DNA of 64,000 nucleotides from Bacteroidales bacterium (GCA_050179935.1 JBFXEQ010000008.1:30905-94904); one strand, 5' to 3'; positions 13,004 through 41,672 are shown, counted from the first letter of the stretch. Numbers and translations: made by a program. Notes: generated by a model not told the origin, from the sequence alone.

Positions 13004-15592
13004 TTTATTAATAAATATAAGCTTTTCTCCCTGCTTATCAATCCAAATAGTTTTATCTTTAGAAATGGTATTGGCCAAGATCTGTTTTGAAAGTTCGTTC
13101 AACACCAATCGCTGCATATTACGTTTAACAGGCCTTGCCCCATAATGAGGATCAAAGCTGATATCAGCAAGCCATTCGATTGCATTGTACTTCATCTCTA
13201 TTGAGATATTTTGCAATTTAAGCATCGCTTTTACCATATCAAACTGCAATTTTACTATATCTACTACTTCTGATTTTGTTAAAGGCGTAAACATTACAAT
13301 CTCATCAACTCTGTTAATAAATTCGGGACGTATGGTTTGCTTTAACAATGTTAAAACCTCAGACTTTGTATCCTCAATAATTTCTTCCCTATTTTTTTCA
13401 TTCATTTTCTGAATACCTTCCTGAATAATATGTGAACCAATATTTGATGTCATTATTACTATGGTATTCTTGAAGTTTACCGTTCGGCCTTTATTATCAG
13501 TTAACCGACCATCGTCAAGAACCTGAAGCAAAATATTAAAGACATCGGGATGCGCTTTTTCGATTTCATCGAGTAAAATAACTGAATAGGGTTTTCGTCG
13601 TACAGCTTCTGTTAACTGTCCGCCTTCATCATAGCCGACATATCCGGGAGGAGCACCAACCAAACGTGATACAGAATGTCGTTCCTGATATTCAGACATA
13701 TCAATACGTGTAATCATATTTTCATTATCGAACAGAAAATCAGCCAATGCTTTTGCTAACTCTGTTTTTCCGACACCAGTAGTTCCTAAAAAAATAAAAG
13801 AGCCAATTGGTCGTTTTGTATCCTGCAAACCTGCTCTGCTACGTCGTACAGCATCGGAAACAGCTGTAATTGCTTCATCCTGTCCAATTACCCTCTTATG
13901 TAATTCTGATTCAAGATTAAGTAGTTTTTCGCGTTCGCTTTGCAACATCCTGCTTACCGGAATACCTGTCCACTTAGCTACAATCTCAGCAATATCATCG
14001 CTGTTTACCTCTTCGTTAATCATAGCCGAATCTTTTTGAATCTCATGTAATTCACCTTTTAAAGCATTCACTTTGTTTTCCAGCTCTTTTATTTTTCCAT
14101 AGCGCAACTCTGCTACTTTACCATAATTACCTTCGCGTTCGGCTTGGTCAGCATCGAGTTTTGAATGTTCGATATTTTCTTTTAATTCCTGAATTTGATT
14201 AGCTAGATTTTTTTCGTTTTGCCACTTTGCTCGTAGCTTGTTTCTTTCGTCAGATAAATTCGCAATCTGCTCACTCAGTTCACCAACTTTCCTCTTATCT
14301 CCTTCTCTTTTGATCGCTTCGCGTTCTATTTCAAGCTGCTTTATGTGTCTTTCAATTTCGTCAATATTTTCAGGAACAGAATTCATTTCGAGTCGAAGTT
14401 TTGATGCAGCTTCATCGATCAAATCAATAGCTTTATCGGGTAAAAAACGATCGGAGATATATCGTTGAGAAAGCTCAACAGCAGCAATTATTGCATCATC
14501 TAAAATACGCACTTTATGATGCGACTCATAGCGTTCTTTTAATCCTCGCAGAATTGAAATTGCACTCAGTGTATCGGGTTCATCGACCATAACCTTTTGG
14601 AATCGTCGTTCCAAGGCTTTATCATTCTCAAAGTACTTTTGATACTCATTTAATGTAGTAGCACCAATAGCTCTGAGTTCGCCACGAGCCAATGCTGGTT
14701 TAAGAATATTTGCAGCATCCATAGCACCTTCAGATTTACCTGCTCCAACTAAGGTATGAATCTCATCAATAAAAAGAATTATATCACCATCGGATGAAAT
14801 AACCTCGTTTACCACTGATTTTAAGCGTTCCTCGAATTCACCTTTATATTTTGCTCCAGCAATAAGTGCTCCCATATCCAAAGCATAAACCTCCTTGTTT
14901 TTTAGGTTCTCAGGAATGTCGCCGCTCAAAATACGATGCGCAATACCTTCGGCAATAGCTGTTTTACCAACACCAGGCTCACCAATCAATATAGGATTAT
15001 TTTTTGTTCTACGTGATAAAATCTGAAGTACACGACGAATCTCATCATCGCGACCAATTACAGGATCAAGTTTTCCCGCTCTTGCCTGCTCAATTAAATT
15101 AATTGCAAATCGATTTAAGGAGTTGAAAGTATCCTCAGCGGTCTGACTTTTTACATTCGAACCTTTTCGTAAATCATGAATAGCGAGCTTAAGGCCTTTT
15201 TCTGAGATTCCGTTATCTTTCATTAGTTGCGATACAGCGTCGCCAGAAGATAAAATACCCAACAGGATATGTTCGATGGAAACAAACTGATCACCCATTT
15301 CTTTTGAAAAAGCCAATGCTTTTTGCAAGGATTTATTTGCTGTATTAGATAAATACGGCTCTCCACCAGAAACTTTGGGATAAGAAAGAATAATCTTATC
15401 TATAGTTTTTTGAAAGATTATTAAATCAACATTTAGTTTTTTAAATAAAAATGCTGATATATTCTCTCCTTCAGAGAAGATACTCTTTACCAAATGTGCA
15501 TTCTCAACTGCTTGCTGTTGATTGCCTTGTGCAATGTTAAATGCTTGCTGAATTGCTTCCTGCGATTTTATTGTAAAATTTTCTGTTTTCAT
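13001..15592 (-). CDS. clpB: ATP-dependent chaperone ClpB
   Basis: Two AAA+ modules with Walker A GEPGVGKT and GTTGVGKT. It also has a long coiled-coil M-domain and the Clp N-domain. The start is set at the ATG 15592 ([17 protein letters not shown]); the ORF-track extension to 15673 begins with TTG and is non-homologous. Confidence 0.9.
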
Positions 15593-17171: not shown

Positions 17172-19526
17172 ATGAAGAGATATTTATTCAGTTTTGTACT
17201 GTTAATTATAAGCTGTACTTATACAATTGCACAAACAAAACCCAAATTAACACAAACCATACGAGGTGTTGTTATTGATAAAGAAACACAAGTTCCAGTT
17301 CCTGGAGTTAATATTGTTGTTGTTAATACCAATCCACAAAAAGGAACTGTAACAAATGAGAATGGATTATTTAGGCTAGAAAATGTGGAAATTGGAAGAC
17401 AGGCATTGCAGGTTAGTTCAGTAGGATATAAAACCCAATCATTCGACAATATTGTGCTTGTATCTGCAAAGGAAACTGTTATGCGCATTGAGCTAGAAGG
17501 TTCTGTTACTTCACTTGATGAAGTGGTTGTAAAAGCAAATGCACGAAAAGATCAGTCAATAAATAAGATGGCAACAATAAGCGCCCGCTCTTTTACTGTT
17601 GATGAAACCAGTCGTTATCCGGGTAGTTATGGCGATCCAGCACGTATGGCAGCGAACTATGCAGGCGTTATGTCGGTTAGAGATAACCGAAACGATATTG
17701 TTATACGAGGCAATTCATCCACAGGATTATTATGGAGGCTAGATGGCGTTGAAATTCCGAATCCAAATCATTTCGCTGCCTCGGGAACAACAGGCGGACC
17801 AATTACCATTTTAAACAATAACCTTTTAACCAATTCTGATTTTCTTACCGGGGCATTCCCTGCCGAATACGGAAATGCGCTAGCCGGTGTTTTTGATTTA
17901 AAAATGCGAACAGGTAATAACGAAAAACGAGAGTATTGGCTCGAGCTGGGTTATAATGGGCTGGAATTTGGAACTGAAGGACCTTTTTCTTCAAACAATA
18001 AAGCATCTTATCTTATTGCATACCGCTATTCGATGGTTGATATTCTTGATTTATTAGGCGCAGAGGTTGAAACAACAAAATATCAGGATTTAACAGTTAA
18101 ACTAAATTTCCCTACATCAAAAGGCAGATGGACACTTTTAGGCATTGGAGGAACAAGTTATATTGAGATGTTTGATTCGAATGATAAACAAAGTGACTGG
18201 ACATTTGATGAATGGGGCGAAGATTTGAGTAACGGATCTCAAATTGGAGCTTTATCATTAACAAACCTACAATTTTTATCAAGTAATACACGTATTCAAA
18301 CATCCGTTTCACTGCAAGGTTCTGAAGTAACTACAAAAATTGATACATTTAATTTAGCCAATCAATCTCCTTTTTTATGGGCTGGTGAAAAATCAACTGA
18401 GGTAAAAGCAAGTATTGGATCGCAACTAAATACAAAACTAAATTCCAAAAACAATTTAAGCCTAGGTTTTATTCTTGATCGCTACTACATCAATTTCGCA
18501 GATAGTAGTATTTCTAATGGTATTTACGATATTGATACTGATATAAAAGATGCCTTTAATCTATATCAGCTTTATACTCAGCTTAAACATAAATTTACCG
18601 ACAATACTGAGTTATATTTAGGTTTACATGGGCAATTCCTGGACTTAAACAATACATACGCAATTGAACCAAGAATGGGATTCAGTTGGGATATCAATGA
18701 AAAAAACACAGTAAAACTTGGCTATGGCTTGCATGCACAAATGCAACTCAGAGCTGTTTATTTTGCCCAAACGAAATTAACATCAGGTGAATATATTACA
18801 ACCAACAAAAACCTTGATTTCTCAAAGAGTCACCAGATCGTTTTGGGTTATGATCATTTATTCAACGAATCACTGCGATTTAAGTTTGAAACCTATTATC
18901 AGTATTTATATGATATACCGGTAAAACAAACACTCCCTCAATATTCTGTTTTAAATTTTGGGGCTGAATATTTTATTGAAAGAATTGACAGCTTAGAAAA
19001 TAAAGGAACTGGAGAGAATTATGGAATTGAACTCACACTTGAACGATTTTTAAAGAACGATTTTTATTTTCTGATTACTGCTTCATTATATAACTCTACC
19101 TACACCGGATACGATAAAATTGAGCGAAATACAGCATTTAACGGGCAGTTCGCATTTAATGCACTTGCAGGATACGAAATAAAAGTATATACTAACAATA
19201 TAATAAGTCTTGGACTAAGAACATCTTATGCCGGTGGTCGTCCGTACGTTCCTTTTGATGTGGACCAAACCCTCACACAAGGACAGGAAGTACTCGACTG
19301 GGATAATGCATATACTCTAAGACCAAGTAATTATTTCAGAGTAAACCTGCGTGTAGGTTATAAACGAAACCGTAAAAAGTTTAGCATTGAATATGCCATG
19401 GATTTGCAATATCGCACAAACTACACCAGTGTTTACGAAAGAAGAATTGACCCTACTAATGGAAAAGTTTATAATAATTATGAAATGGCACTTTATCCAA
19501 TGGCTTTATGGAGAATCCAGTTCTAA
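17172..19526 (+). CDS. TonB-dependent-receptor-like outer-membrane protein with CarboxypepD_reg N-terminal domain
   Basis: 784 aa with a signal peptide. IRGVVIDKETQVPVPGVNIVVVN...GLFRLENV is the carboxypeptidase-regulatory-like fold. This is followed by a plug-like region and a long beta-barrel ending in the aromatic terminal residue WRIQF. Confidence 0.75.
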   Translation: MKRYLFSFVLLIISCTYTIAQTKPKLTQTIRGVVIDKETQVPVPGVNIVVVNTNPQKGTVTNENGLFRLENVEIGRQALQVSSVGYKTQSFDNIVLVSAKETVMRIELEGSVTSLDEVVVKANARKDQSINKMATISARSFTVDETSRYPGSYGDPARMAANYAGVMSVRDNRNDIVIRGNSSTGLLWRLDGVEIPNPNHFAASGTTGGPITILNNNLLTNSDFLTGAFPAEYGNALAGVFDLKMRTGNNEKREYWLELGYNGLEFGTEGPFSSNNKASYLIAYRYSMVDILDLLGAEVETTKYQDLTVKLNFPTSKGRWTLLGIGGTSYIEMFDSNDKQSDWTFDEWGEDLSNGSQIGALSLTNLQFLSSNTRIQTSVSLQGSEVTTKIDTFNLANQSPFLWAGEKSTEVKASIGSQLNTKLNSKNNLSLGFILDRYYINFADSSISNGIYDIDTDIKDAFNLYQLYTQLKHKFTDNTELYLGLHGQFLDLNNTYAIEPRMGFSWDINEKNTVKLGYGLHAQMQLRAVYFAQTKLTSGEYITTNKNLDFSKSHQIVLGYDHLFNESLRFKFETYYQYLYDIPVKQTLPQYSVLNFGAEYFIERIDSLENKGTGENYGIELTLERFLKNDFYFLITASLYNSTYTGYDKIERNTAFNGQFAFNALAGYEIKVYTNNIISLGLRTSYAGGRPYVPFDVDQTLTQGQEVLDWDNAYTLRPSNYFRVNLRVGYKRNRKKFSIEYAMDLQYRTNYTSVYERRIDPTNGKVYNNYEMALYPMALWRIQF

Positions 19527-19571
19527 ATAATTCTGCATTGAAATTAAAAGATAATTGCTTAAGATTTTAAG

Positions 19572-20915
19572 ATGAAAATACTTCTCATAAATACTCCCCG
19601 TTCGCCCCATAATATGATTCTTGAATCGGCTCCAGAAGAAGCCAAACATTTTATACATAAAAAGCTTATTGGACCACCTCTTGGACTATTAACAATTGCA
19701 GCAGCAGTTAAGGATTATGATGTAACTGTTTTCGATACAAAAGGAGAATACGATTTACATCCAGAAAAAACACCGCCACTAAAAGAGTTGGTTCATAAAC
19801 TATTAAAACAATACAATCCAGATATTGTAGGAACCACTACAATTGCATCAGAGTTTTATTATGCAATTGAAATATTACAAGAAACAAAAAAATACAACCC
19901 CGAAATTTTAACCGTTATTGGTGGATTACATGCTACCATTGCAACATCAGACTTTACTGATTCTTCGATTGATTTAGTTTTACCAGGTCAATCAGCATTT
20001 GTTTTCAGAGAAGTAGTTCAAGCCAAAGAAAAAGGACTGTCTTTTGAAAACATTGGAGGATTATTTATTCAGAAAAACGGTCACCTTATTCCATCTAAAG
20101 GAATTGCAAAAGAAGTGAATGCAGCGAATGCAGATTTTCTAATGCCCGACAGAAAACATTTAGAAAGATGGAAAGAAACATATAAGGTTGGAAACAGTCC
20201 TTTTCCTTCAACTTATATTTTTTCTTCGCTTGGATGCCCTTATAAATGTACGTTTTGCTCCATATGGTGTCAGTTTGATGGAAGATACTATCAGCGAAAA
20301 GTCGAAAGCGTTATCGATGAGCTTAAAATGGTTGATGATTATCCTATTGTTCGTTTTGCCGATGCCAATACAATAGTAGGAAATAATTTTATAAACAAAC
20401 TTTTTGATCGGATACAGGAAGAAGGTATTCGTAAAGATTATATCATGGATATTCGCTCTGATACTGCAGTTAAATATCCAAAATTGATAGAAAAACTGGC
20501 TAAAGGAGGATTAAAGGTTGTAATATGTGGGTTTGAATCGTTTCGTGAAGAAGAACTCAAAAAATATAATAAGAGCAGCGAAGCCAAATTGATTCATGAA
20601 GCAATTGAAATTTTTCACCAGAACGGGATAATGTTGCGTGGCAATTATGTTATTCCTAACGATTATGATGAATCTGATTTTAAAGCATTGTCAGATTATA
20701 CATCATCTCACCGGGTAACATATGCTGGTTATACCATTTTATCTCCTATGCCTGGAACACCTTATTATAACGAAGTTAAAGATCAAATCATCGATCATGA
20801 TTTATCTAAATATAATTTTTTTAATAGTGTATTAAAAACAAAACTTCCACTCGAAAAGTATTACGAAAATGTCGGAAAACTTTGGCTTATTAAAAAAGGA
20901 ACCGATGTAATTTAA
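19572..20915 (+). CDS. B12-binding-domain radical SAM protein (paralog 1 of 3)
   Basis: 447 aa. It has an N-terminal cobalamin-binding-like Rossmann segment (PPLGLLTIAAAVK...DIVGTT) and the cluster motif CPYKCTFC (CxxxCxxC). Confidence 0.8.
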   Translation: MKILLINTPRSPHNMILESAPEEAKHFIHKKLIGPPLGLLTIAAAVKDYDVTVFDTKGEYDLHPEKTPPLKELVHKLLKQYNPDIVGTTTIASEFYYAIEILQETKKYNPEILTVIGGLHATIATSDFTDSSIDLVLPGQSAFVFREVVQAKEKGLSFENIGGLFIQKNGHLIPSKGIAKEVNAANADFLMPDRKHLERWKETYKVGNSPFPSTYIFSSLGCPYKCTFCSIWCQFDGRYYQRKVESVIDELKMVDDYPIVRFADANTIVGNNFINKLFDRIQEEGIRKDYIMDIRSDTAVKYPKLIEKLAKGGLKVVICGFESFREEELKKYNKSSEAKLIHEAIEIFHQNGIMLRGNYVIPNDYDESDFKALSDYTSSHRVTYAGYTILSPMPGTPYYNEVKDQIIDHDLSKYNFFNSVLKTKLPLEKYYENVGKLWLIKKGTDVI

Positions 20916-21038
20916 CCCTCCAAATCATACTTTAATCACTAATATTCTGACATTTACGTTAAAATTATAAATCGGTATAATTATTGATGATTCAATATTT
21001 ATATTTAAAAATTTATTACCTTAGCTTAACAATTAAAA

Positions 21039-21428
21039 ATGGAGGAAATTATAAAAATGAAAAAAGCAATTTACACCATTACAACATTGGTAATTTTTTT
21101 AGTTTTCAGTACCGGGGCGTTTGCAAATAAAACAGGGGTTAAAATAATTGCCCCCGAAAAAGCAACTAAGGGAACTGAAATTACCATTAAGATTGAAGTT
21201 AATCACATAGGAAACACCAAAGGTCACTATACCGATTGGGTTCTGGTAAAAGTAAACGGAAAAGAATTCAAAAAGTGGGAATATAATCCCAGCAGTTTAC
21301 CTGAAAATCAGAATTTTGTTCTTGAGTTTACAATAAAAGCAGAGGAAAACATGGAAATTATTGCCGAAGGAAACTGCAACAAACACGGGTCTAAAGGAGA
21401 AAATAAAGTATTCATTAAAGTCGAATAA
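21039..21428 (+). CDS. Secreted superoxide-reductase-like (SORL / desulfoferrodoxin centre-II-like) domain protein
   Basis: It has a signal peptide. NHIGNTKGHYTDW resembles the H-x5/6-H-x-I-x-W segment of SOR, and CNKHG resembles the SOR CNxHG motif. The first His ligand (EKHVP region) is not evident. An alternative start lies at 21057. Confidence 0.45.
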   Translation: MEEIIKMKKAIYTITTLVIFLVFSTGAFANKTGVKIIAPEKATKGTEITIKIEVNHIGNTKGHYTDWVLVKVNGKEFKKWEYNPSSLPENQNFVLEFTIKAEENMEIIAEGNCNKHGSKGENKVFIKVE

Positions 21429-21429
21429 T

Positions 21430-21615
21430 ATGATTTTCGGAATCAATATTATTTTATGGCTTGGAATAATAAATCTTTTTTTGGCATTATTCCAATTGAT
21501 GAGCGGCTTACGTTACATAAAAGTTAAATACAGGCTGCATAAAACACTTGGTATTATATTCTTCTTTACTGCATTTACACATGGAATTTATGCATTAGTA
21601 ATAAATTATATTTAA
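21430..21615 (+). CDS. Small two-TM membrane protein with two intramembrane His
   Basis: 61 aa from the ATG at 21430, 1 nt after the upstream stop. It has two hydrophobic helices with His in HKTLGIIFFF and FTHGIY. The ORF-track start 21361 overlaps the upstream gene and is rejected. Confidence 0.45.
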   Translation: MIFGINIILWLGIINLFLALFQLMSGLRYIKVKYRLHKTLGIIFFFTAFTHGIYALVINYI

Positions 21616-21640
21616 AATTAAACCTTAATTAAAATTAATT

Positions 21641-22255
21641 ATGAAAAGTTTAAAATTGATTCTTGTATCACTTATTTTTTTAAGTGTTACTTCTGTTCAG
21701 GCACAGAAAATAAAAGTTACAGAAGGTGACCTTACTTTCTTAAAAGGGCAAACCCAAGTACTTGTTGAGTACGATTATAGCCAACTAGCTGTAGGCAAAT
21801 TTGACAAAGAAGAAGATTATGTTGCCAAAAAAGTTTCGGAATACAATGCAAAGAATCCAGGTACTGGTGACGAGTGGAAAGTAAAATGGGAAGCAGATAG
21901 AGAAGGTCGTTATCATCCAAAATTTGAAGAATTACTAAATAGCTACACTTCAAAAGCAAATTGCAGTTTTGATCAAACAAATATTAATGCACCATATACT
22001 ATGATTTTAAAAACAACCTTTACTGAACCAGGTTGGAATATTGGTATTTCAAGAATGGATGCTTCAATTAATGTTGAAATCATTTTTGTTGAAACGGTTA
22101 ATCATGACAACAAATTAGCTGTAATAACAATGACAGGTGTTCCTGGCCGTGGTGCTATGGGTAATGATTATGATACCGGTTTCAGAATTCAGGAAGCTTA
22201 CGCAAAATGCGGAAAAGAAACTGGCGCATTTTTAGTTAAAAAAGTTTTTAAATAA
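21641..22255 (+). CDS. Secreted hypothetical protein
   Basis: 204 aa with a signal peptide (LIFLSVTSVQA-QK). No family recognised. Confidence 0.55.
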   Translation: MKSLKLILVSLIFLSVTSVQAQKIKVTEGDLTFLKGQTQVLVEYDYSQLAVGKFDKEEDYVAKKVSEYNAKNPGTGDEWKVKWEADREGRYHPKFEELLNSYTSKANCSFDQTNINAPYTMILKTTFTEPGWNIGISRMDASINVEIIFVETVNHDNKLAVITMTGVPGRGAMGNDYDTGFRIQEAYAKCGKETGAFLVKKVFK

Positions 22256-22276
22256 TCTTTAATTTTTATACAAAAA

Positions 22277-22305
22277 GGGAAATCTATAACTGATTTCCCT
22301 TTTTT
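22277..22305. terminator. Bidirectional rho-independent terminator closing the minus-arm operon
   Basis: Stem GGGAAATC (22277-22284) / GATTTCCC (22292-22299), loop TATAACT. An A5 run precedes it and a T6 run follows. Confidence 0.7.
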
Positions 22306-22309
22306 GTTT

Positions 22310-23206
22310 TTATAATTTGTTTATTGGAATAAACTTAAAGGTTCCATCAATAAAGCGGGCAATTTTTGAAAGATCTTTGCCAGATCCACATTCATAAAAT
22401 TCATTAACCCCATCATTTAAAAGCATCTGCATGGTTTTATACCAATTTATTTTTGATGTAAGGTTATAAACCAGCTCTTTTCGAATTTCATCCACCGAAT
22501 TTATTGTCCTTTGATCATAGGTAGAAATTATTAAAAATTGGGGCGTATTTATCTCTAAGGTATTTATAAAACCTGCAAATCGATCAGCAAAACCGCTTAA
22601 ATATTTAGAATGATAAGGTGTTTTTACATTAAACTCCACGGCATTTAGTGCTCCTTCTGCTTTGGCCAACCCAAGAAGTATATTCACATTATGCTTTTTT
22701 CCGGCAATTACATGCGAAAACTCACTGTTTGTGTTAATAATTTCAATTTCAGAACTTGATTGATTTATTAATTGACTGATATCATCATTACTCAAACCAA
22801 TAACTCCGCCCATTCCATATTTTCCGGAGCAAGAAAGTTCATTAACCAGTTTAAAGGCATTAAAGATTATTTGAATTCCATCCTCCAATTTAATCGATCC
22901 AGCAGCATAAAGACTTGCATATATTCCCATGCTATAACCGGCAACAAAATCAGGTTTTACATCTTTTTTCTTCAATAAATCTGCAAAAGCACAGCTAAAT
23001 ATGTAGGCAATAATTTGCGCCAACAACTCATCTTTTTTATATTCGATAGCTGAATATGAGAATTCGGGCAAATCAATCCCCAATTTATTGGATGCCCTGT
23101 TGATATAGTCTTTAAAATTAATTCCAGAGCTAGCAATTGTCTCAATCTCTTTTTGCGTATAATCAGTTATAAAAGCAGGAAAAATAAATGCTCGCTTATG
23201 AATCAT
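22310..23206 (-). CDS. FabD-like acyl-carrier-protein S-acyl(malonyl)transferase
   Basis: 298 aa. It has the FIFPAF N-terminus, the nucleophile elbow GYSMG (GHSxG variant), and a His in KTPYHSKYL equivalent to the FabD AFHS. Confidence 0.7.
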   Translation of the reverse strand: MIHKRAFIFPAFITDYTQKEIETIASSGINFKDYINRASNKLGIDLPEFSYSAIEYKKDELLAQIIAYIFSCAFADLLKKKDVKPDFVAGYSMGIYASLYAAGSIKLEDGIQIIFNAFKLVNELSCSGKYGMGGVIGLSNDDISQLINQSSSEIEIINTNSEFSHVIAGKKHNVNILLGLAKAEGALNAVEFNVKTPYHSKYLSGFADRFAGFINTLEINTPQFLIISTYDQRTINSVDEIRKELVYNLTSKINWYKTMQMLLNDGVNEFYECGSGKDLSKIARFIDGTFKFIPINKL

Positions 23207-23214
23207 AAAGTACG

Positions 23215-23580
23215 TTAATTTAACAATAAAACTGTGCAGATTATATATTGATCTGTTTCTCTAAAGTTAATATCAATTTTTTTTATTCCTTTTTTTGCTA
23301 TTTCGATGGTTATTAATGCTGATGGTTCAATTTTATAATCATTCTCAGTAAAAAGAATTTCAATATCACACCAGCTTATATTTAATGAATTAATTGCTTT
23401 ATAAAATGCCTCTTTAAAACAAAAGCCTTTTAAAAAGGCTTTCTTACCATAGTATGAGTAATTCTCAATCTCTCGTGTTGTAAAAATATCATAAATCAAA
23501 TCGGACAGTATTCCATTTTGGAAATAATGTTTATCGAATCGGTTTATTTCTTCAATATCGATACCACATGAGAGTACCAT
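23215..23580 (-). CDS. AcpS-type 4'-phosphopantetheinyl transferase
   Basis: 121 aa. GIDIEEINRF and FCFKEAFYKA match the AcpS motifs. Confidence 0.75.
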   Translation of the reverse strand: MVLSCGIDIEEINRFDKHYFQNGILSDLIYDIFTTREIENYSYYGKKAFLKGFCFKEAFYKAINSLNISWCDIEILFTENDYKIEPSALITIEIAKKGIKKIDINFRETDQYIICTVLLLN

Positions 23581-23591
23581 TCGACATGAGT

Positions 23592-23897
23592 TTATTCGAA
23601 ATTTAAAATACTATTTTCGTGTTCAATTATTAATAACTGCATATCAATAAGTTCTCCAACCGTTTTTACCGGATGTTTAACTGCGTATTTACCTATTGTT
23701 TTTAATTCGATATTTAAGCTGTATTTCTTCTTGAAAATCTCGATAAGTTCAAGAAACATCAACGAGTCGCCATCTAAATCGCTAATAATATTTGTTTTAT
23801 CTGAAATATCTTCAATTGGAGTTTCACATTCTTCGGCAAAAAATTCGTAAACGATTGTTTTTACCTCTTCTTTTATTTTATCTGTAATCTGAGCCAT
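23592..23897 (-). CDS. Acyl carrier protein (divergent)
   Basis: 101 aa. DLDGDSLMFLELIE contains the DSL phosphopantetheine-attachment serine. Confidence 0.7.
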   Translation of the reverse strand: MAQITDKIKEEVKTIVYEFFAEECETPIEDISDKTNIISDLDGDSLMFLELIEIFKKKYSLNIELKTIGKYAVKHPVKTVGELIDMQLLIIEHENSILNFE

Positions 23898-23908
23898 TTT
23901 ATAATAAT

Positions 23909-24277
23909 TTATTCGCTGATTAATTTATCTACTTCTTCTTTTGTTAATTGGTTCCAATCCGGATTAATAAATTGGTTGTTTTCGATTGTAAAATCAACTC
24001 TGAAAAATGTTTCTCTATTAAATTCAAGTTTGGTATTTTTATCGGGAGTATGTTCAATAAAAACGAAATTATTAGGATTGATTTCAAATTTATTACATAA
24101 TTCCATCGCAAGCTTTGTATTCCATTCGGTAATTGATGTTCCAGGGTTTTTATCATATAAATCGGTTGCAATGACAATTGTATTATGGGCCTTCTTAACA
24201 ATTTTCAATCCACAAATCGATGGTAAATCCCAAAGGCCTTTAAAATTATATAACTGATCTTGATATTTATTCTCCAT
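23909..24277 (-). CDS. Hypothetical protein, no recognisable family
   Basis: 122-aa ORF packed 11-14 nt from both neighbours in the operon. No motif recognised. Confidence 0.55.
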   Translation of the reverse strand: MENKYQDQLYNFKGLWDLPSICGLKIVKKAHNTIVIATDLYDKNPGTSITEWNTKLAMELCNKFEINPNNFVFIEHTPDKNTKLEFNRETFFRVDFTIENNQFINPDWNQLTKEEVDKLISE

Positions 24278-24291
24278 ATTGCAATCTGAAT

Positions 24292-25566
24292 TTAAACAAT
24301 TTTTGAGCTAACAGATTTACCAAAACTAACTTTTGACAAATCCTGACGTCTTTTCTTATAGGTACCATCTTCTATTTCTCTTGAAACAACCTGTTTAAGT
24401 AATTTAAACATTTTCTCTTCCTGTGTTTCGTCTTTATAGAAAGTATCCCAGGCATATTGATATAATTCTTGTAATCTTTCAGCACTCATGTGTTTAGGAT
24501 GATAAACTACCTGACCTGCATTATAGTTATCCCAATTATGATCAAAAATTCTATTTTGCTTAACCAGATCGACATATGCTTTAGTATGCGGAAATGGGGC
24601 AAGAACAGTAAACTCAGCTAAATCTAGATCAATCTCGAGCAAGAAGTCGATTAATCGTTTTATATCATCCTCTGTTTGATCATCAAGACCAAGAAGAATA
24701 GTTCCTTCAACTCCAATTCCGTAATCGTGATATCTCTTAACGCGTTGCTTAATATAGTCGGAAGTATCAAATACCGCCTGATAAACATACCATGCACCTG
24801 CCTGTGCTGCTAAATCGAGCACTTCGGGTTTATCTTCGATGGTATGACTACACCATTTTTTCTTAAATGGGATCATGGCTTTAAACAGCTCTTTTTCCCA
24901 TTCGGTATCCTGAGCCAATGAATTATCAACAATAAATAATCTGTTATTATCAATGGTGGCAAGCTCTTCGACTACTTTGTGTACAGGTCGTGGTCTGAAA
25001 TGACGACCACCCAAATACGATACAGCACAAGGATAGCAACTATATTTACAGCCACGTGATGCATGAAACGTATCAACCATTTGTACTCCTTTGTGATAAT
25101 ATAAATCTCTCTTATAAAGTTCACGACGTGCAGGGCCCACAATTTCGATTGGAGGTAAATCGTTCATAAAATTGTAAACTTTTTTAAGTTCACCTTTCCT
25201 GAAATCATTAAAAACCTGATCCATATGACCTTCGGATTCGCCCAGGAAAACCGAATCGGCATGTAACATGGTTTCTTCAGCATGTAACATGGTTGAGATA
25301 CCACCGAAAATAACTTTTTTTCCACGTTTCCTATATTCATCAGCAATAGCCCATCCACGTTTTACCTGTGTAGTGAGGAGCATTGAAATTCCGACAAAAT
25401 CAACATTATCGTCGTAGCGCAATTCTTCTAAGTTCTCATCAATAAACTCAACCTCAAAATCGTTTGGAATGGCAGCTGCAAAAACAATTGCACCATGAGG
25501 TGGAAGATTAAATGTTGTTTGCCCTTCGAGTTTTCTCCATTTTGGAAATACTAATTGAAATTTCAT
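24292..25566 (-). CDS. B12-binding-domain radical SAM protein (paralog 2 of 3)
   Basis: 424 aa. It has an N-terminal B12-binding-like segment (VDFVGISMLLTTQ) and the motif CKYSCYPC. Confidence 0.8.
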   Translation of the reverse strand: MKFQLVFPKWRKLEGQTTFNLPPHGAIVFAAAIPNDFEVEFIDENLEELRYDDNVDFVGISMLLTTQVKRGWAIADEYRKRGKKVIFGGISTMLHAEETMLHADSVFLGESEGHMDQVFNDFRKGELKKVYNFMNDLPPIEIVGPARRELYKRDLYYHKGVQMVDTFHASRGCKYSCYPCAVSYLGGRHFRPRPVHKVVEELATIDNNRLFIVDNSLAQDTEWEKELFKAMIPFKKKWCSHTIEDKPEVLDLAAQAGAWYVYQAVFDTSDYIKQRVKRYHDYGIGVEGTILLGLDDQTEDDIKRLIDFLLEIDLDLAEFTVLAPFPHTKAYVDLVKQNRIFDHNWDNYNAGQVVYHPKHMSAERLQELYQYAWDTFYKDETQEEKMFKLLKQVVSREIEDGTYKKRRQDLSKVSFGKSVSSKIV

Positions 25567-25573
25567 ATATTAA

Positions 25574-26677
25574 TTATTTTGTTTTTATTTCACAGTATTT
25601 ATAATTATTCTGCGTCATCCAGGATTTTAAAACACTGTTAATTATTGTTTTGTTTTCCTCGGGTAATGTATATTTATTTTTTTGATAATCACTTATACTT
25701 AAAAGAAAATCATTTAGTTTCAAATCAAATTCGTTAGAATAATCGATATTAAAATGCTTGTATATCGCTTTTATTATTTCTTTTGGATTTTTCTCAAATT
25801 CCTCAAATTTAATCTCGTACTGTCGCTCTTCTGGTAATTTATTAAGATCGTTCTCAATTGTATTAAGCATATCATTTAATACTTCAGATACTTCTAAAAT
25901 TGTTGGTTTTTGCCAATGAGTATTCATCGAGTTTTGTGTACCAACAATATCCCACATTCGCTGAGTTGAAGGTACTACACTGTATGGATGCCTTATGATA
26001 TGCACATACCTGGCATTTGGAAAAATCTCATTTAAAACAGGTATTCGCAATGAATGAAATGGATTTTTTATAAGAATCGTTTTAGGGCTATAGATTAATA
26101 GTTTTTTATAAAAATAAATTAATGAATCTTTCCATTTCTGCAATTTTTCATTTTTTGGTAAAAACCCTGGGTAATTTTTTAAAAAATAGCCTCCTTTTTT
26201 TGGAAAGATAACTTGCTCCAAAGGCGAATAAACTGATAATCTGAATAAAGCATATTCATCTTCCAAAGGTTCGTCTAAGCCTAACTTAACCTGATCCATA
26301 GGCCGAGTACCTTTAATCATACGACTCATAAGCGGTTCGTACGATTTACGAGAGGTAAGAAAGCTATCGGGTATTGATGCCTGAAAAACTGTTGGAGTAA
26401 CAAAGTTTTGATCTAAACTTAATAACTGATGAAGAAAAGTACTACCAGTTCTCCAATGACCAATAATAATTACGGGATTATCAGATAGTTTTTGGTTTTT
26501 GATTTTTTCTCCATAAATCTTATTCTCTTTTCGGTGAAAAATTGAAGCCCACGCTCCATTTTGAAATAAGAATAAAAAGCGAACCAGATATTTCGGGTAA
26601 ATTGAAATACCATTTCGTGCAACAAGTTTTAAGAATCTTGTTAGTCTTGTTCCCGCAATAAGATATGCGCTTTTCAT
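25574..26677 (-). CDS. Sulfotransferase-family protein
   Basis: 367 aa. GHWRTGSTFLHQLL matches the PAPS 5'-phosphosulfate-binding loop. IIRHPYSVVPS matches the 3'-phosphate-binding R-x-P-x5-S region. Confidence 0.7.
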   Translation of the reverse strand: MKSAYLIAGTRLTRFLKLVARNGISIYPKYLVRFLFLFQNGAWASIFHRKENKIYGEKIKNQKLSDNPVIIIGHWRTGSTFLHQLLSLDQNFVTPTVFQASIPDSFLTSRKSYEPLMSRMIKGTRPMDQVKLGLDEPLEDEYALFRLSVYSPLEQVIFPKKGGYFLKNYPGFLPKNEKLQKWKDSLIYFYKKLLIYSPKTILIKNPFHSLRIPVLNEIFPNARYVHIIRHPYSVVPSTQRMWDIVGTQNSMNTHWQKPTILEVSEVLNDMLNTIENDLNKLPEERQYEIKFEEFEKNPKEIIKAIYKHFNIDYSNEFDLKLNDFLLSISDYQKNKYTLPEENKTIINSVLKSWMTQNNYKYCEIKTK

Positions 26678-26704
26678 TCGTTAACGATTATAAAAAATAT
26701 AAAT

Positions 26705-26980
26705 CTATGCCTTATTGTTTATTATAAAATCGGCAATTGTATTTACATTTTTTAATACTTCGCGGGCAAGATTCTGATCATCGATACGAACATTAAATTG
26801 TCTTTGAACAGCCATAACTAATTCAATAGCATCGATAGAATCGAGACCTAATGTATTTTCGCCTCCGAACAGTGGTATTTCATCATCAATATCAGCAGCA
26901 GCAATATCAGGAATGTTAAGTGTTTTAATAATCAGATCTTTAATCTCCAGCTTCAAATCATTTAGATTTTTTTCTTCCAT
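26705..26980 (-). CDS. Acyl carrier protein
   Basis: 91 aa. LGLDSIDAIELV is the canonical ACP attachment motif. Confidence 0.85.
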   Translation of the reverse strand: MEEKNLNDLKLEIKDLIIKTLNIPDIAAADIDDEIPLFGGENTLGLDSIDAIELVMAVQRQFNVRIDDQNLAREVLKNVNTIADFIINNKA

Positions 26981-26988
26981 CGTAAAAT

Positions 26989-28005
26989 TTAATTTAAACT
27001 TTTAACAACTAGTTTTAATTCTTTATAAAATGCCTCCTCAGCATCGGCACGATCAAGAATCATCTTACTAAGCTCGGTTAGTTTATCATGTCCCAGATCG
27101 CGGTTTTTACTAATTTTTGCAGCAAAGTAAGAAATATTTCTCCAACCATCTCCAATTTCCATCATCTTTTTTGACAAAACATCAAGTTCGGTACTATTAA
27201 ATAATTGAGCAGCTTGACGAAGAAAAGTAGCGTACATAAACCTAAAACCAGCTCCACCGGTTCCCTGATCTTCGAGAAAAATATTTATTTTGGTTATTTC
27301 GTGCGATAAATGATCTATATCGCGGGTAAGTTTTGGCCATCCAACAACTTTTCGTCCAAACATACGTATGCCTCTAATACCAATAAACGGAGGCTGAATA
27401 CCAATCATATTATTGATTGTTTCTTTAATTCCTTTGATGATAATTTTTTTTTGGTCAAACGATTGAGGAATAGAATCAATATAATACATAAATCCCTTGG
27501 GTGCTAAATATCCTTTAGCAAATCGGGCTTTTTGCAAACTACCTTTATGCAGCTTGGCAAGCTTCGGAAAATAACTATCGCTAACTATGTAATGATCGCC
27601 CTCTTTTCCTACAATAGTAATAAAATGAATATTTGCATGTACCCGCTCCCATTCAGGAATATAATCCATGTAATACAAATCAACCTGCACAGCAACAGGT
27701 ATTCCCTTTGCAATTAAAGAATCGAGCTGCTGTTCTGCTTTTTCGGGATTTCTGAATTTCTCTGATTTAAATTTAATACCAATTCTTTTGGCTACTTTTT
27801 TCCTTAGTTTACCAGGTTTTGTACGCAAAATAAACATTGGGAAATTTAAATTAGGAGTGTGCGTTAAATAACCAAAATAAAGTCCACTACCCATACCAAA
27901 AATCATTGGTTCGGTAATTGTAAGGCCTTTGTGGTTTAATAATGCAGTAAGTGTACCCGATTCGCAATGGGCAGCCATATTATGTTTAAAAGATTCAATA
28001 ATCAT
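26989..28005 (-). CDS. BtrH N-terminal-domain / DUF4872-like protein (papain-like Cys acyltransferase/peptidase fold), paralog A
   Basis: 338 aa. AAHCESGTLTALLNHKGL...IFGMGSGLYF matches the BtrH_N Cys motif. It aligns end to end with the 338-aa protein at 35843-36859. Confidence 0.65.
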   Translation of the reverse strand: MIIESFKHNMAAHCESGTLTALLNHKGLTITEPMIFGMGSGLYFGYLTHTPNLNFPMFILRTKPGKLRKKVAKRIGIKFKSEKFRNPEKAEQQLDSLIAKGIPVAVQVDLYYMDYIPEWERVHANIHFITIVGKEGDHYIVSDSYFPKLAKLHKGSLQKARFAKGYLAPKGFMYYIDSIPQSFDQKKIIIKGIKETINNMIGIQPPFIGIRGIRMFGRKVVGWPKLTRDIDHLSHEITKINIFLEDQGTGGAGFRFMYATFLRQAAQLFNSTELDVLSKKMMEIGDGWRNISYFAAKISKNRDLGHDKLTELSKMILDRADAEEAFYKELKLVVKSLN

Positions 28006-28006
28006 T

Positions 28007-28507
28007 TTATTTATTTAATTCGAATTTTGTAATTACTAAACATGAGTTTTGTGTTTTGGTTTGTTTAACACGATAATTTTTTTCGTTTGGTTTTCCGTCT
28101 TTAGTTTCATTATCTCTACCCTCAACAGTTATAACCTGAAATAAGTTCGAAACCGGAACATCAAATACTTCGGCATATTTTAATAAATCTGAAACAGTGG
28201 CTTTTTGAAATCCTTTTAATTTCAAATGTTTTTTAACTTTAAATATCGATAATCCAGCTCTACTCGATAATTCGTACACATTAAAATCGTGAATTATACG
28301 GTAATACTCAATCGGACTAATTTGGCATTCTTTAAGCTGATTTAACAACGAGAACCTTAATTTTTCCATTTTATCGAAAAAATCATCGATATAATTCTTT
28401 GATAAATGCGATCCGGTAACCAATGGTCCAAATGTGCCATCCTCTTTCTCTACATAAAGCAAGAGCTGATGAGGTTCGTAATCGACAAATGCTTCCTTTT
28501 CTTTCAT
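28007..28507 (-). CDS. Small HTH-like protein, paralog A (first gene of the minus arm)
   Basis: 166 aa. The segment ISPIEYYRIIHDFNVYELSSRAGLSIFKVKKHLKLKGFQKATVSDLLKYAEVFDVPVSNLFQ aligns with 35429-35833. It has an XRE/Cro-like helix-turn-helix appearance. Confidence 0.5.
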   Translation of the reverse strand: MKEKEAFVDYEPHQLLLYVEKEDGTFGPLVTGSHLSKNYIDDFFDKMEKLRFSLLNQLKECQISPIEYYRIIHDFNVYELSSRAGLSIFKVKKHLKLKGFQKATVSDLLKYAEVFDVPVSNLFQVITVEGRDNETKDGKPNEKNYRVKQTKTQNSCLVITKFELNK

Positions 28508-28566
28508 ACCAGATTATTAATGATACGTTACTTCACAAGATACAGAATTATCAATCTTTCGGTTTG

Positions 28567-28819
28567 AAACTATTTAAAAATTCTGTTCTGTTTTCGGGTT
28601 ACTAAATTATACTAAATAAATAAATCACCAAAATTTTTAAAATAGTGTAATAAGCAGAAAATAATTAGCAAACACCTTAAAACCATCAAAATATTAATAT
28701 AACTAATACCTGATTTTAAAACTATTTTTCTGGATTTCATCAAAATATGTTTAAAAAAACCTTTTAATAAGATAGCTGTTTAATAAAAGTAAAAACTATT
28801 TATTAAATTTGCACTATTT
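28567..28819. promoter_or_regulatory. Repeated AAACTATTT motif in the divergent promoter region
   Basis: Exact 9-mer AAACTATTT at 28567-28575, 28719-28727 and 28793-28801, plus CACTATTT at 28812-28819. All lie inside the 380-bp spacer between the two arms. Confidence 0.35.
28804..28811 (+). promoter_or_regulatory. -7 promoter box for the plus-arm operon (TAAATTTG)
   Basis: Exact TAnnTTTG match, 77 nt upstream of the ATG at 28888. The context TAAATTTGCACTATTTA resembles TAATTTTGCACTTTACTA at 39146. Confidence 0.35.
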
Positions 28820-28887
28820 ATAAATTAAGGAAAATAGTCCAATTTATTGATTAACTGAATATTAATATCAAATAATATTAAATTACT

Positions 28888-32439: not shown

Positions 32440-32688
32440 ATGGATAAGCAGGAGATTATTACCAAAATAAACAGCTTTTTAATTGAGGAATTCGAACTTG
32501 AAGAAAACCAGTTACAGCCAAATGCAAGTTTAAAAGAGACCTTAGAGATAGATAGCCTTGATTATGTTGATTTGGTAGTTATTATAGAAAGAAACTTCGG
32601 ATTCAAAGTAAAAGGAGGAGATTTTGCCACCATAAAAACACTCCAGGATTTTTATGACTACATCATAAAACATGCTAATTCGAATTAA
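32440..32688 (+). CDS. Acyl carrier protein
   Basis: 82 aa. LEIDSLDYVDLV is the attachment motif. Confidence 0.85.
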   Translation: MDKQEIITKINSFLIEEFELEENQLQPNASLKETLEIDSLDYVDLVVIIERNFGFKVKGGDFATIKTLQDFYDYIIKHANSN

Positions 32689-35428: not shown

Positions 35429-35833
35429 ATGGAAAAAAATAAAGTACCCCAGGACGAAGGAATCACAGCAGGAATAACCAGAGAAGTACAATATGCCATT
35501 GATGAAAACGGTAAATATATAAAAACATTTAGTAAAGGTTGGGAGCCCAAAAATATTGTTAATTCAATTGCTTGGGATCTAATAAATGAACGTGTTGAAA
35601 TGGCTGATGAGAAAATTCGTAAGGGCAAAGCCAGCCCTATTTTGCATTTTATGGAGAAACATCAGATGAATATTTCTATCCTAGCTGATTATACTGAGAT
35701 TCCCAGAATTAAAGTTTGGTGGCATTTGAAACCAAAAGGATTTAAGAACATCAAGGATGAATATCTCAAAGCATATTCACAAGTTTTTGAGGTAAGTATT
35801 GAGGAGATTATTCAATTTAATCCAACTAAATAA
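35429..35833 (+). CDS. Small HTH-like protein, paralog B
   Basis: 134 aa. ASPILHFMEKHQMNISILADYTEIPRIKVWWHLKPKGFKNIKDEYLKAYSQVFEVSIEEIIQ aligns with 28007-28507. Confidence 0.5.
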   Translation: MEKNKVPQDEGITAGITREVQYAIDENGKYIKTFSKGWEPKNIVNSIAWDLINERVEMADEKIRKGKASPILHFMEKHQMNISILADYTEIPRIKVWWHLKPKGFKNIKDEYLKAYSQVFEVSIEEIIQFNPTK

Positions 35834-35842
35834 AGTTACAAA

Positions 35843-36859
35843 ATGGATTTGAACACAAAATTAGAGTTTCAGCATATACCAGCAGGACATTGTGAGAACG
35901 GAGTAATATCGAGTCTTTTAAAATATCATGGGTTAGAATTAAGCGAAGCTATGATTTTTGGAATTGGCAGCGGACTGTTTTTTGCATATATGCCATTTGT
36001 AAAAGTAAATGGTATTCCTACAGCATCATTTAGGCCAGTGCCGGGGATGATTTTTACCCGTGCTGCGAAAAGACTTGGCATAAAAATGAAAAAACAAACC
36101 TTTCGTAATCAGCCTAAAAGAGCAATGGAAGAGCTCGACAGAACTCTTGCACAAGGACTTCCGGTTGGTATTCAAGGTGGAGTTTATCATTTATCGTATT
36201 TTCCACCTGCCTATCGCTTTCATTTTAATGCTCATAACTTAACTGTTTTCGGAAAAGAGGAGAACACCTATTTTATTAGCGATCCCGTTATGGAATACTC
36301 CACTACGTTAACATACGACGAAATGGTGAAAGTACGATTTGCAAAAGGAGCTTTTCCACCAAATGGCCGAATGTATTACCCTATAAGTATTCCTGATAAA
36401 ATAGATCTGCCATCAGCAATAAAAAAAGGCATCAAACAAACCTGCGAATACATGTTAACAATACCTGTTCCATTATTTGGCGTAAAAGGGATAAGATATC
36501 TGGCTGGCAGAATGCGGAAATGGCCAAATCGATTAGGACCCAAGAAAGCGGCTATTTATCTTGCACAAGTGGTAAGAATGTTAGAAGAAATAGGAACCGG
36601 AGGCGCTGGATTTAGATTTATTTATGCTGCCTTTTTGCAAGAATCTGCAATCGTGTTGGAAAATCCTAAATTTGAAGATTTATCGAAAGAGATGACAAAA
36701 ATTGGTGATATGTGGAGGAAGTTTTCTTCGCAAGCAGCCCAAACCTGTAAAGGAAGATCTGCAGAACCTGATGGGTATAATACAGCTGCTAATTTATTGT
36801 TAGAAATTGCAGATGCTGAAGAGAAATTATTTAAAGAACTAAGGAAAACGATTAACTAA
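35843..36859 (+). CDS. BtrH N-terminal-domain / DUF4872-like protein, paralog B
   Basis: 338 aa. Contains AGHCENGVISSLLKYHGL...IFGIGSGLFF. The shared blocks VRFAKGAFPPNGRMYY, GVKGIR, IGTGGAGFRFIYAAFL and ADAEEKLFKEL match paralog A. Confidence 0.65.
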   Translation: MDLNTKLEFQHIPAGHCENGVISSLLKYHGLELSEAMIFGIGSGLFFAYMPFVKVNGIPTASFRPVPGMIFTRAAKRLGIKMKKQTFRNQPKRAMEELDRTLAQGLPVGIQGGVYHLSYFPPAYRFHFNAHNLTVFGKEENTYFISDPVMEYSTTLTYDEMVKVRFAKGAFPPNGRMYYPISIPDKIDLPSAIKKGIKQTCEYMLTIPVPLFGVKGIRYLAGRMRKWPNRLGPKKAAIYLAQVVRMLEEIGTGGAGFRFIYAAFLQESAIVLENPKFEDLSKEMTKIGDMWRKFSSQAAQTCKGRSAEPDGYNTAANLLLEIADAEEKLFKELRKTIN

Positions 36860-41417: not shown

Positions 41418-41672
41418 ATGGAATCATTAATTCAGAAAATTAAAGAACAAGTAATCGAAGTATTAAATTTAGAAGAAGTAACACCACAAGATATTGATAC
41501 CGATGCTCCCCTTTTTGGAGATGGTTTAGGTCTCGATTCAATCGATGCATTAGAATTAATCGTATTGCTCGAAAAACAGTATGGTATTAAAATTGAAGAT
41601 CCAAAAGACGGAAAAAAAATATTCTTTTCAATTCGTACCATTGCAGAATATATCGAATCACATAAAAAATAA
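41418..41672 (+). CDS. Acyl carrier protein
   Basis: 84 aa. LGLDSIDALELI is the attachment motif. Confidence 0.85.
   Translation: MESLIQKIKEQVIEVLNLEEVTPQDIDTDAPLFGDGLGLDSIDALELIVLLEKQYGIKIEDPKDGKKIFFSIRTIAEYIESHKK

Follow-up and report, generated by a model that had tools for sequence, protein, structure and literature searches.

Three accessory modules, one with an Stf-type sulfotransferase, make up the minus-strand arm of a flexirubin-type aryl polyene cluster in a Bacteroidales bacterium

The 64,000-nucleotide stretch of Bacteroidales DNA analysed here (GCA_050179935.1, JBFXEQ010000008.1:30905-94904; hereafter, the window) contains, at positions 22,310 to 28,507, an arm of nine minus-strand genes (g1 to g9; Table 1) that diverges from a flexirubin-type aryl polyene (APE) cluster on the plus strand. 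Based on the mapping of the window proteins onto related loci, this arm is a lineage-specific juxtaposition of three accessory modules: a quartet (g1-g4) encoding a DarG-like protein, the BtrH-type acyltransferase DarH2, the acyl carrier protein (ACP) ACP1 and an Stf-type sulfotransferase (ST) dependent on 3'-phosphoadenosine-5'-phosphosulfate (PAPS); a module B (g5-g6, usually together with the outer-membrane protein (OMP) OMP784); and a module C (g7-g9). What is new here is the coupling of a duplicated DarG/DarH/ACP hand-off unit to an Stf-type ST, along with anaerobe-style B12-binding radical S-adenosylmethionine (SAM) accessories (B12-rSAM), in a cluster of the flexirubin/APE type. We put at about even the chance that the arm as a whole represents three accessory modules of a flexirubin-type APE lipid cluster of anaerobic Bacteroidota, fused in this lineage; for the part assigned to the quartet, in which a membrane pigment lipid that DarH2 hands off from ACP1 would be optionally O-sulfated, we likewise hold the balance to be level.

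The nature of the plus arm was established by profile searches of the window open reading frames (ORFs), in which FlxA, a tyrosine ammonia-lyase (TAL), FlxB, LolA2 and LolB2 scored 801, 409, 230 and 148 bits, all above their equivalog cutoffs of 700, 340, 125 and 60. Relatives of the ST were found in 493 species-representative genomes (512 close homologues in the protein collection); the best 80 were mapped and 88 loci were fetched in all, of which 70 had enough upstream sequence for the gene order to be read and 41 were fully flanked (9 kb or more on either side). The best 80 loci all lie in metagenome-assembled genomes (MAGs), of Bacteroidales type (Marinilabiliales, Prolixibacteraceae including Draconibacterium, Rikenellaceae and Lentimicrobiaceae), and also include Chlorobiota, one Fibrobacterota MAG and one MAG labelled Thiohalospira sp. 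The MAG "Bacteroidales bacterium BF4_75" (L007) is 97% identical, and the quartet is also present in MAGs that have been assigned to Draconibacterium orientale, a species in culture. The Thiohalospira contig (L026), nominally from a gammaproteobacterium, shows a complete Bacteroidales-type arrangement with an ST 64% identical to that of the window, and probably reflects an error of MAG binning or labelling.

The genes g1-g2-g3 stand upstream of the ST gene in 68 of the 70 loci and thus form with it an invariant quartet, whereas the other genes come and go: in the 41 fully flanked loci, g5 was recognized in 35, g6 in 34, OMP784 in 30, p204 in 25, an HpnR-like radical SAM gene in 20, g7 in 17, g9 in 16 and g8 in 13, and g7-g9 are absent from 24 loci that keep the quartet. 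The full nine-gene arm divergent from FlxA is present in all 13 fully flanked loci with an ST of 60% identity or more, and only there, which is far beyond chance. In more distant loci, g5-g6-OMP784 are located before or after the quartet and g7/g9 lie beside other genes. The description of the arm as self-contained in the initial annotation has to be given up, since the three modules separate in other lineages and the conserved partners extend beyond 22310-28507, at 17172-22255. The physical and evolutionary tie to an aryl polyene/flexirubin core, by contrast, is borne out by the window annotation and by the related loci: wherever the surroundings could be annotated, distant lineages included, the quartet adjoins APE/flexirubin-type genes. 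Even at loci where homology mapping showed no APE gene, Pfam annotation places the quartet in an APE-type operon with, in order, a C45 acyltransferase, g5, g6, an OMP, an LpxL-like acyltransferase (AT), a phenol-type O-methyltransferase, an ATP-binding cassette (ABC) permease, the quartet and an AMP-ligase.

Judged from sequence comparison, g1-g3 duplicate the cluster's own DarG/DarH/ACP unit rather than constitute a distinct pathway. The g2 product scored 337.2 bits against the DarH equivalog model NF053550 (cutoff 300; residues 6-331 on a model of 325 positions) and is 39% identical to the plus-arm DarH; H13-C14-E15, H127 and D143, which include the Cys nucleophile, are invariant in 70 DarH2 and four DarH sequences. 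A PDB search found no solved-structure relatives of DarH2. The g1 product matched the NCBIfam DarG_fam at E = 6e-13, with 49 and 51 bits (NF053536 and NF053545) that lie below the cutoffs of 70 for the subfamily and 170 for the equivalog, and is 24% identical to the plus-arm DarG (E = 7e-9); it is most readily taken as a divergent DarG paralogue, homologous and syntenic but below the family cutoff. Its earlier label, "HTH-like" (helix-turn-helix), is plausible, as the canonical plus-arm DarG has a weak Cro/C1 match (Pfam HTH_26). ACP1 has its closest paralogue in the plus-arm ACP at 41418-41672 (Table 1), and all 77 sequences keep the serine of its DS motif.

The absence of BtrH-type transferases from characterised flexirubin pathways, as put forward in the initial annotation, is contradicted: NCBIfam curates a "BtrH-related acyltransferase DarH", the plus arm itself carries DarG and DarH, and a 2014 gene list of the dialkylresorcinol (DAR) cluster of Azoarcus (PMC3949708) already has a BtrH-like gene beside darAB. 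Because g1 and g2 are paralogues of the plus-arm DarG and DarH, BtrH-type genes are standard in flexirubin/DAR clusters and no novelty. The arm thus has its nearest known counterpart in the dar genes, with g1, g2 and g3 homologous to DarG, DarH and a DarC-type ACP in the same order, the curated DarH cutoff exceeded, the Cys/His/Asp set kept and FlxA, FlxB, LolA2 and LolB2 clustered around. The dar genes are known from the flexirubin clusters of Chitinophaga and Flavobacterium and from the arcuflavin cluster of Azoarcus. The arm differs in that its copy is second and divergent, with g1 below the DarG cutoff; that its unit is always followed by a sulfotransferase; that the window is without the resorcinol synthase DarA/DarB; and that its hosts are anaerobic Bacteroidales-type lineages, whereas the flexirubin producers are aerobic. 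Similarity to the BtrH/BtrI pair of butirosin biosynthesis is confined to the BtrH_N domain and an adjoining dedicated ACP: no relationship by solved structure or by close sequence similarity turned up, and the C-terminal domain (DUF4872), the acceptor and the pathway are different.

The assignment of g4 as a sulfotransferase stood up to alignment. The protein scored 102.9 bits against Sulfotransfer_3 (gathering threshold 27), and the PAPS-binding motifs are intact in 26 sequences that are 47-94% identical to the window protein: GHWRTGST, the 5'-phosphosulfate-binding (PSB) loop of consensus GxxRxGS/T-T, has G73, H74, W75, R76, G78 and T80 without exception, and its T77 and S79 are at least 90% conserved; the named positions of R229-H-P231-...-P236-S237 (RHPxxVxPS), the 3'-phosphate-binding (PB) motif of type Rx7S, are invariant; and an acidic motif, DEPxEDEY, is invariant or nearly so. 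In the AlphaFold2 (AF2) model (mean predicted local distance difference test score, pLDDT, 88), the PSB loop is placed after the first beta-strand. A single-sequence PDB search gave the ST of CurM as the best match and also found that of olefin synthase (OLS). However, a profile of the ST family ranked Stf9 (5e-14) and Stf1 (3e-13) ahead of CurM/OLS (5e-8), and a fold search with the model matched Stf1 and Stf9 over the full length, the N-terminal helical extension included (E = 1e-11; template modelling (TM) score 0.57-0.66), as against E = 6e-7 and a TM score of 0.36-0.39 for CurM/OLS. Retinol dehydratase and LGS1 were among the structural matches, and JGI labels homologues of the ST as Stf3-like lipid STs. 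An exhaustive search returned 3966 representatives; among the 150 best, the relatives with more than one domain (30-34% identity) have as fusion partners MMPL, LPG_synthase_C (MprF-type) or Rce1-like membrane domains or APS (adenosine-5'-phosphosulfate) kinase, never an ACP, a ketosynthase (KS) or a thioesterase (TE).

The mycobacterial Stf enzymes (Stf1, PDB 2ZQ5; Stf9, PDB 2Z6V) are therefore the best match to the arm ST by both profile and structure, with the same PAPS motifs, but share only about 16% identity with it and belong to another phylum, and the arm ST is encoded in a polyketide-type pigment cluster beside an ACP. In mycobacteria, Stf3 sulfates omega-hydroxy-dihydromenaquinone-9 to yield the lipid S881. 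Four DarH2-clade proteins were sampled on long contigs, and while three are followed by an ACP and then an ST, the fourth (L088, 8001-10859) is encoded in a Prolixibacteraceae-type operon in which an AMP-ligase gene comes directly after that of the ACP and the genes for the ST, a protein of about 237 amino acids and p204 are all missing. Since the operon is found without the ST but otherwise unchanged, sulfation is an optional tailoring step. In short, the PAPS motifs, the matches to Stf1 and Stf9, the fusions to lipid-related domains and the ST-less operon speak for a sulfation that depends on PAPS, is optional and takes place on the product, a membrane lipid, and against an obligatory activation step.

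According to this scheme, an acyl chain (polyene or fatty) would be built by the type II KS/chain-length factor (CLF), ketoreductase (KR) and dehydratase (DH) enzymes of the plus arm and carried on ACP1; DarH2 would take it onto Cys14 and esterify a hydroxyl acceptor; and the ST would then O-sulfate a free hydroxyl of the resulting membrane lipid with PAPS. The sulfate would be retained, giving an anionic outer-membrane pigment lipid; a sulfated head group, as suggested in the initial annotation, is one possible form, the evidence favouring no more than retention of sulfate on a membrane lipid. A direct functional link between g1-g3 and the ST is indicated by the position of the ST, which remains fixed after them in nearly all loci while the surroundings are rearranged. 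Module B, normally with OMP784, may perform a radical and probably cobalamin-dependent modification such as C-methylation, and module C, a private ACP with its own phosphopantetheinyl transferase (PPTase) and an AT of the FabD fold, most likely primes a non-malonyl (starter) acyl unit, a task that an AMP-ligase appears to take over in other lineages.

Several observations weigh against this scheme. Only one ST-less operon was seen, among the four sampled. Neither the window nor any of the 88 fetched loci has a gene for APS kinase or other PAPS supply close to the quartet. The ACP1 gene lies directly upstream of the ST gene, with a 4-nt overlap of stop and start in some loci; such tight adjacency also fits an ST that acts on an ACP-bound substrate, and simple tailoring leaves it unexplained. 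The complementarity of AT and AMP-ligase described below is confounded by phylogeny, and 12 of the 41 fully flanked loci show neither within 10 kb. The role of DarH is a curated name, and we know of no demonstrated activity. Finally, neither DarA/DarB, the dialkylresorcinol synthase, nor an AMP-ligase was found among the scanned ORFs of the 64-kb window, so that the window has no evident source of the acceptor alcohol and no evident means of activating the starter; DarA/DarB may be encoded elsewhere in the genome.

The ACP-ST adjacency leads directly to an alternative modelled on CurM and OLS, whose ACP-ST-TE tridomain serves in the formation of curacin A and of cyanobacterial 1-alkenes. Here the ST would sulfate the beta-hydroxyl of an acyl chain bound to ACP1, DarH2 would play the role of the CurM thioesterase, and the sulfate would leave at off-loading through elimination, decarboxylation or cyclisation, so that the product would bear none. 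Both systems combine an ST with an adjacent carrier protein and an enzyme for chain release, their STs have the Sulfotransfer_3-type fold in common and are detectably similar in sequence, an ACP gene directly precedes the ST gene in 68 of the 70 loci, and sulfation-assisted eliminations recur in the ST superfamily, as the structural matches to retinol dehydratase and LGS1 recall. The arm proteins are discrete, however, and the putative releasing enzyme is papain-like and of BtrH type rather than an alpha/beta-hydrolase TE. This reading, raised by the first PDB match, was downgraded after the profile search, the fold search, the fusion partners and the ST-less operon had been considered: no TE is adjacent, Stf1 and Stf9 match better by profile and by three-dimensional model, the relatives examined are fused to lipid-handling domains or APS kinase but not to ACP, KS or TE, and off-loading evidently does not need sulfation in the natural variant, in which the ST is dispensed with. 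We therefore regard it as unlikely, and it is equally improbable that a discrete trio of ACP, Stf-type ST and BtrH-type Cys enzyme, with sulfate as the leaving group that drives elimination, decarboxylation or ring closure of a carrier-bound polyketide chain at off-loading, serves as a non-homologous analogue of the CurM tridomain in roughly 500 species of anaerobic Bacteroidota.

The initial annotation had instead pictured a self-contained nine-gene pathway that loads (FabD-like), primes (AcpS) and decorates (radical SAM enzyme and ST) its own carrier-tethered unit, which might be a sulfated head group and which the BtrH-like enzyme joins to the polyene. Nine co-oriented genes with such short gaps, kept as a block in 13 of 13 close-lineage loci and encoding two ACPs, a PPTase and an AT, would fit this picture, but it is made doubtful by the break-up of the block into three independently placed modules in distant lineages, by the loss of g7-g9 from more than half of the fully flanked loci that retain the quartet, by a g9 that cannot bind malonyl in the FabD manner (see below), by the paralogy of g1-g3 to plus-arm genes and by the lack in the arm of any KS, KR or DH to build the unit. 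The least likely of the readings considered makes the ST a bystander that acts on some other lipid or glycolipid of the envelope, its sole link to the cluster being common genes for export and outer-membrane targeting (MMPL, LolA/B-like, ABC and TonB-dependent-transporter-like genes). Although the fusion of its relatives to general lipid-handling domains, the lack of a dedicated PAPS supply in the cluster and its dispensability in the one operon would agree with such a role, its place right after DarG2-DarH2-ACP1 is maintained across orders and even phyla (Chlorobiota, Fibrobacterota) amid rearranged surroundings. Sulfation of the pigment lipid itself is the reading we prefer.

Few biosynthetic gene clusters of Gram-negative bacteria are as widespread as those for aryl polyenes and flexirubins, yet the lipid-anchored end products are still ill defined, above all in anaerobes. 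The Ape clusters of Escherichia coli and Vibrio have much in common with the window cluster: type II KS/CLF pairs, two ACPs, an ApeP/ApeI-like DH, an LpxL-like acyltransferase, GT2, MMPL and LolA-like export genes. To our knowledge, no described Ape cluster contains DarG/DarH, sulfotransferase or B12-rSAM enzymes. Full-text searches of the literature collection available found nothing that links flexirubin, aryl polyene or dialkylresorcinol clusters to a sulfotransferase or a sulfated product, in agreement with the earlier statement that no such pathway with an ST is known. The four-gene unit (DarG-like, DarH-like, ACP and Stf-type ST), conserved in 493 species-level genomes, predicts a sulfated, hence anionic, outer-membrane pigment lipid in anaerobic Bacteroidota, a chemotype undescribed so far. 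Handles for experiment are offered by the natural ST-less variant, by the D. orientale carriers and by a predicted mass shift of 80 Da. Two likely annotation traps are also corrected here, namely a "FabD" without malonyl-binding residues and a BtrH-like gene that is canonical DarH. The significance is limited in that the arm would be a tailoring variation on a known pathway, with its chemistry deduced from the genes; the module itself is widespread and strongly conserved.

The family calls made for the arm genes hold in Pfam and NCBIfam profile searches, with corrections for g1, g2 and g9. The correction of g9 bears on module C, which had been credited with carrier-loading machinery of the FabD type. 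The g9 protein scored 47 bits against Acyl_transf_1 and 154.6 bits against the fabD model (TIGR00128), whose cutoff is 260.9, and it keeps both members of the E. coli FabD dyad, Ser92 and His201; Arg117, however, has given way to Ala or Val and Gln11 to Phe in all 28 orthologues, and hence g9 cannot bind malonyl in the FabD manner. By its residues it is predicted to be an acyltransferase or hydrolase for a non-malonyl group. It travels with g7 (ACP2), whose DGDSLM motif is invariant in 29 of 29 sequences. The third member, g8, scored 40.2 bits against ACPS (Pfam cutoff 25) and fell below the cutoffs of the acpS equivalog models; it occurs only in the lineage with an ST at least 60% identical. 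Within 10 kb of the quartet, 17 of the 41 fully flanked loci have g7/g9 only and 12 an AMP-ligase only, with no locus having both, which suggests that the two are alternative priming systems. In one locus (L084, 1-7900), ACP2 and a g9-type acyltransferase are accompanied by two extra B12-rSAM genes, two crotonase-fold (enoyl-CoA hydratase, ECH) genes, a short KS III-like gene, a 3-hydroxyacyl-CoA dehydrogenase and a 4HBT thioesterase, a set that looks like a sub-pathway making a modified short acyl unit.

In module B, g5 is the most conserved gene of the arm (median identity 72% where that of the ST is only 46%). Its B12-binding domain (PF02310; 31.5 bits, E = 2e-7) lies just under the gathering score of 32.1, as does its Radical_SAM domain (28.8 bits, E = 2e-6) under its own, and the cysteines C173, C177 and C180 of the CxxxCxxC radical SAM motif are invariant in 51 of 51 sequences. 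Against the NCBIfam equivalogs it scored far below every cutoff, matching no characterised radical SAM family, and a PDB sequence search gave AprD4 as the sole match, a weak one (E = 1e-4). Its partner g6 follows directly wherever both were mapped. Only 118 homologues of g6 were found, none of them annotated; no Pfam or NCBIfam match was obtained, and a fold search with its AF2 model (pLDDT 86) gave no PDB match at E <= 0.001 (best TM score 0.35). OMP784 comes straight after g5-g6 in other lineages and probably belongs with them as one functional unit, although in the window it is on the opposite strand.

ORF mapping placed the nine genes at exactly the coordinates given in the initial annotation, and confirmed its count and its maximum gap of 27 nt; from g1 to g9, the gaps measure 1, 8, 27, 7, 14, 11, 11 and 8 nt. 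The strong terminator hairpin reported at 22277-22305 was found as well, at slightly different positions, with its z-score taken against shuffled sequence (Table 1); as it is flanked by convergent genes (the arm and p204), it is bidirectional. The 380-bp divergent promoter region also agreed with measurement. Its three same-strand copies of AACTATTT, at 28568, 28720 and 28794, compare with a total of only 13 in the whole 64 kb, and ACTATTT occurs in the same orientation in 16 of 23 orthologous intergenic regions; AACTATTT/ACTATTT may therefore be a regulatory site for both divergent arms. A scan for sigma-70 promoters gave 24 matches as against 38 in shuffled sequence and is uninformative for a Bacteroidota genome. 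No cobalamin riboswitch or other RNA element was found near the genes for TonB-dependent transporters or B12-rSAM enzymes, no Rfam family reaching its gathering score anywhere in the window.

Table 1. Positions of the arm genes and of associated features, counted from the first nucleotide of the window
Feature	Position	Strand or extent	Remarks
g1, DarG-like small protein, 166 aa	28007..28507	-	first gene of the quartet
g2, DarH2, BtrH-type Cys acyltransferase	26989..28005	-	BtrH_N + DUF4872, DarH equivalog
g3, ACP1, APE-type acyl carrier protein	26705..26980	-	PP-binding
g4, Stf-type PAPS-dependent sulfotransferase, N-terminal helical extension	25574..26677	-	Sulfotransfer_3
g5, B12-binding-domain radical SAM enzyme, uncharacterised family	24292..25566	-	B12-binding, Radical_SAM, CxxxCxxC
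g6, 122-aa protein, no family, obligate neighbour of g5	23909..24277	-	synteny
g7, ACP2, divergent acyl carrier protein	23592..23897	-	PP-binding
g8, AcpS-type phosphopantetheinyl transferase	23215..23580	-	ACPS
g9, FabD-fold Ser-His acyltransferase or hydrolase (predicted), not malonyl-specific	22310..23206	-	Acyl_transf_1
Terminator hairpin	22272..22304	between g9 and convergent p204	13-bp stem, -16.5 kcal/mol, z = -5.1
Divergent promoter region common to the arm and the TAL (FlxA) arm	28508..28887	380 bp	three direct AACTATTT copies
Plus-arm canonical DarG + DarH, paralogues of g1 and g2	35429..36859	+	DarG_fam 135 bits (cutoff 70); DarH 461 bits (cutoff 300)
Plus-arm APE-type ACP ahead of KS3/CLF3, closest ACP1 paralogue	41418..41672	+	38% identity to g3
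p204, secreted 204-aa protein, no Pfam match	21641..22255	+	in 25/41 fully flanked loci
p129, secreted 129-aa desulfoferrodoxin-like domain protein	21039..21428	+	Pfam Desulfoferrodox E = 8e-8; in 13/41 loci
Further B12-binding radical SAM enzyme, HpnR/BchE-like	19572..20915	+	Pfam B12-binding, Radical_SAM above cutoff; in 20/41 loci
OMP784, TonB-dependent-receptor-like outer-membrane protein, 784 aa	17172..19526	+	CarboxypepD_reg + Plug; in 30/41 loci

Apart from the genes named above, the plus arm contains two KS/CLF pairs and a FabB-like KS, two ACPs (32440-32688 and 41418-41672), an LpxL-like acyltransferase, an ApeP-like dehydratase, ABC and resistance-nodulation-division (RND) exporters, a GT2 and a fusion of MMPL, 1-acylglycerol-3-phosphate acyltransferase (AGPAT) and methyltransferase domains. 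Its "lipid biosynthesis" B12-rSAM matches TIGR04072 above cutoff. The cluster thus holds three different B12-rSAM enzymes (beginning at 19572, 24292 and 33624), that at 19572 having HpnR as its top NCBIfam match (136 bits, below cutoff). The TAL is encoded in 28888-64000, and a 4-coumarate-CoA/AMP-ligase was not found in the window. Nor was a FabH-like gene present among the scanned ORFs of the 64 kb, in which the flexirubin signature of DarA/DarB is lacking. A DarB/FabH-like gene occurs in only a few distant loci; unlike in the window, the Rikenellaceae loci L042, L043 and L049 have a FabH-like, possibly DarB-type, gene on the minus strand some 3 kb downstream of the quartet (about 14350-15390).

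On the other side of the arm, p129, with its domain of superoxide-reductase type, is a conserved neighbour in the close lineage and may be a sign that the pigment cluster of this anaerobe has to do with oxidative stress. To the left of about 15.7 kb the window consists of housekeeping genes. Among these (serA/serC-like, DUF1015) is a gene for a ComB-type 2-phosphosulfolactate phosphatase (6724-7434), a sulfur-metabolite enzyme, though probably unrelated to the cluster. The MMPL fusion of the plus arm (55050-58910) is a single protein of 1286 amino acids that joins an MMPL transporter, an acyltransferase of the 1-acylglycerol-3-phosphate type and a SAM methyltransferase, and this triple fusion also adjoins the quartet in Chlorobiota loci (L003/L030).

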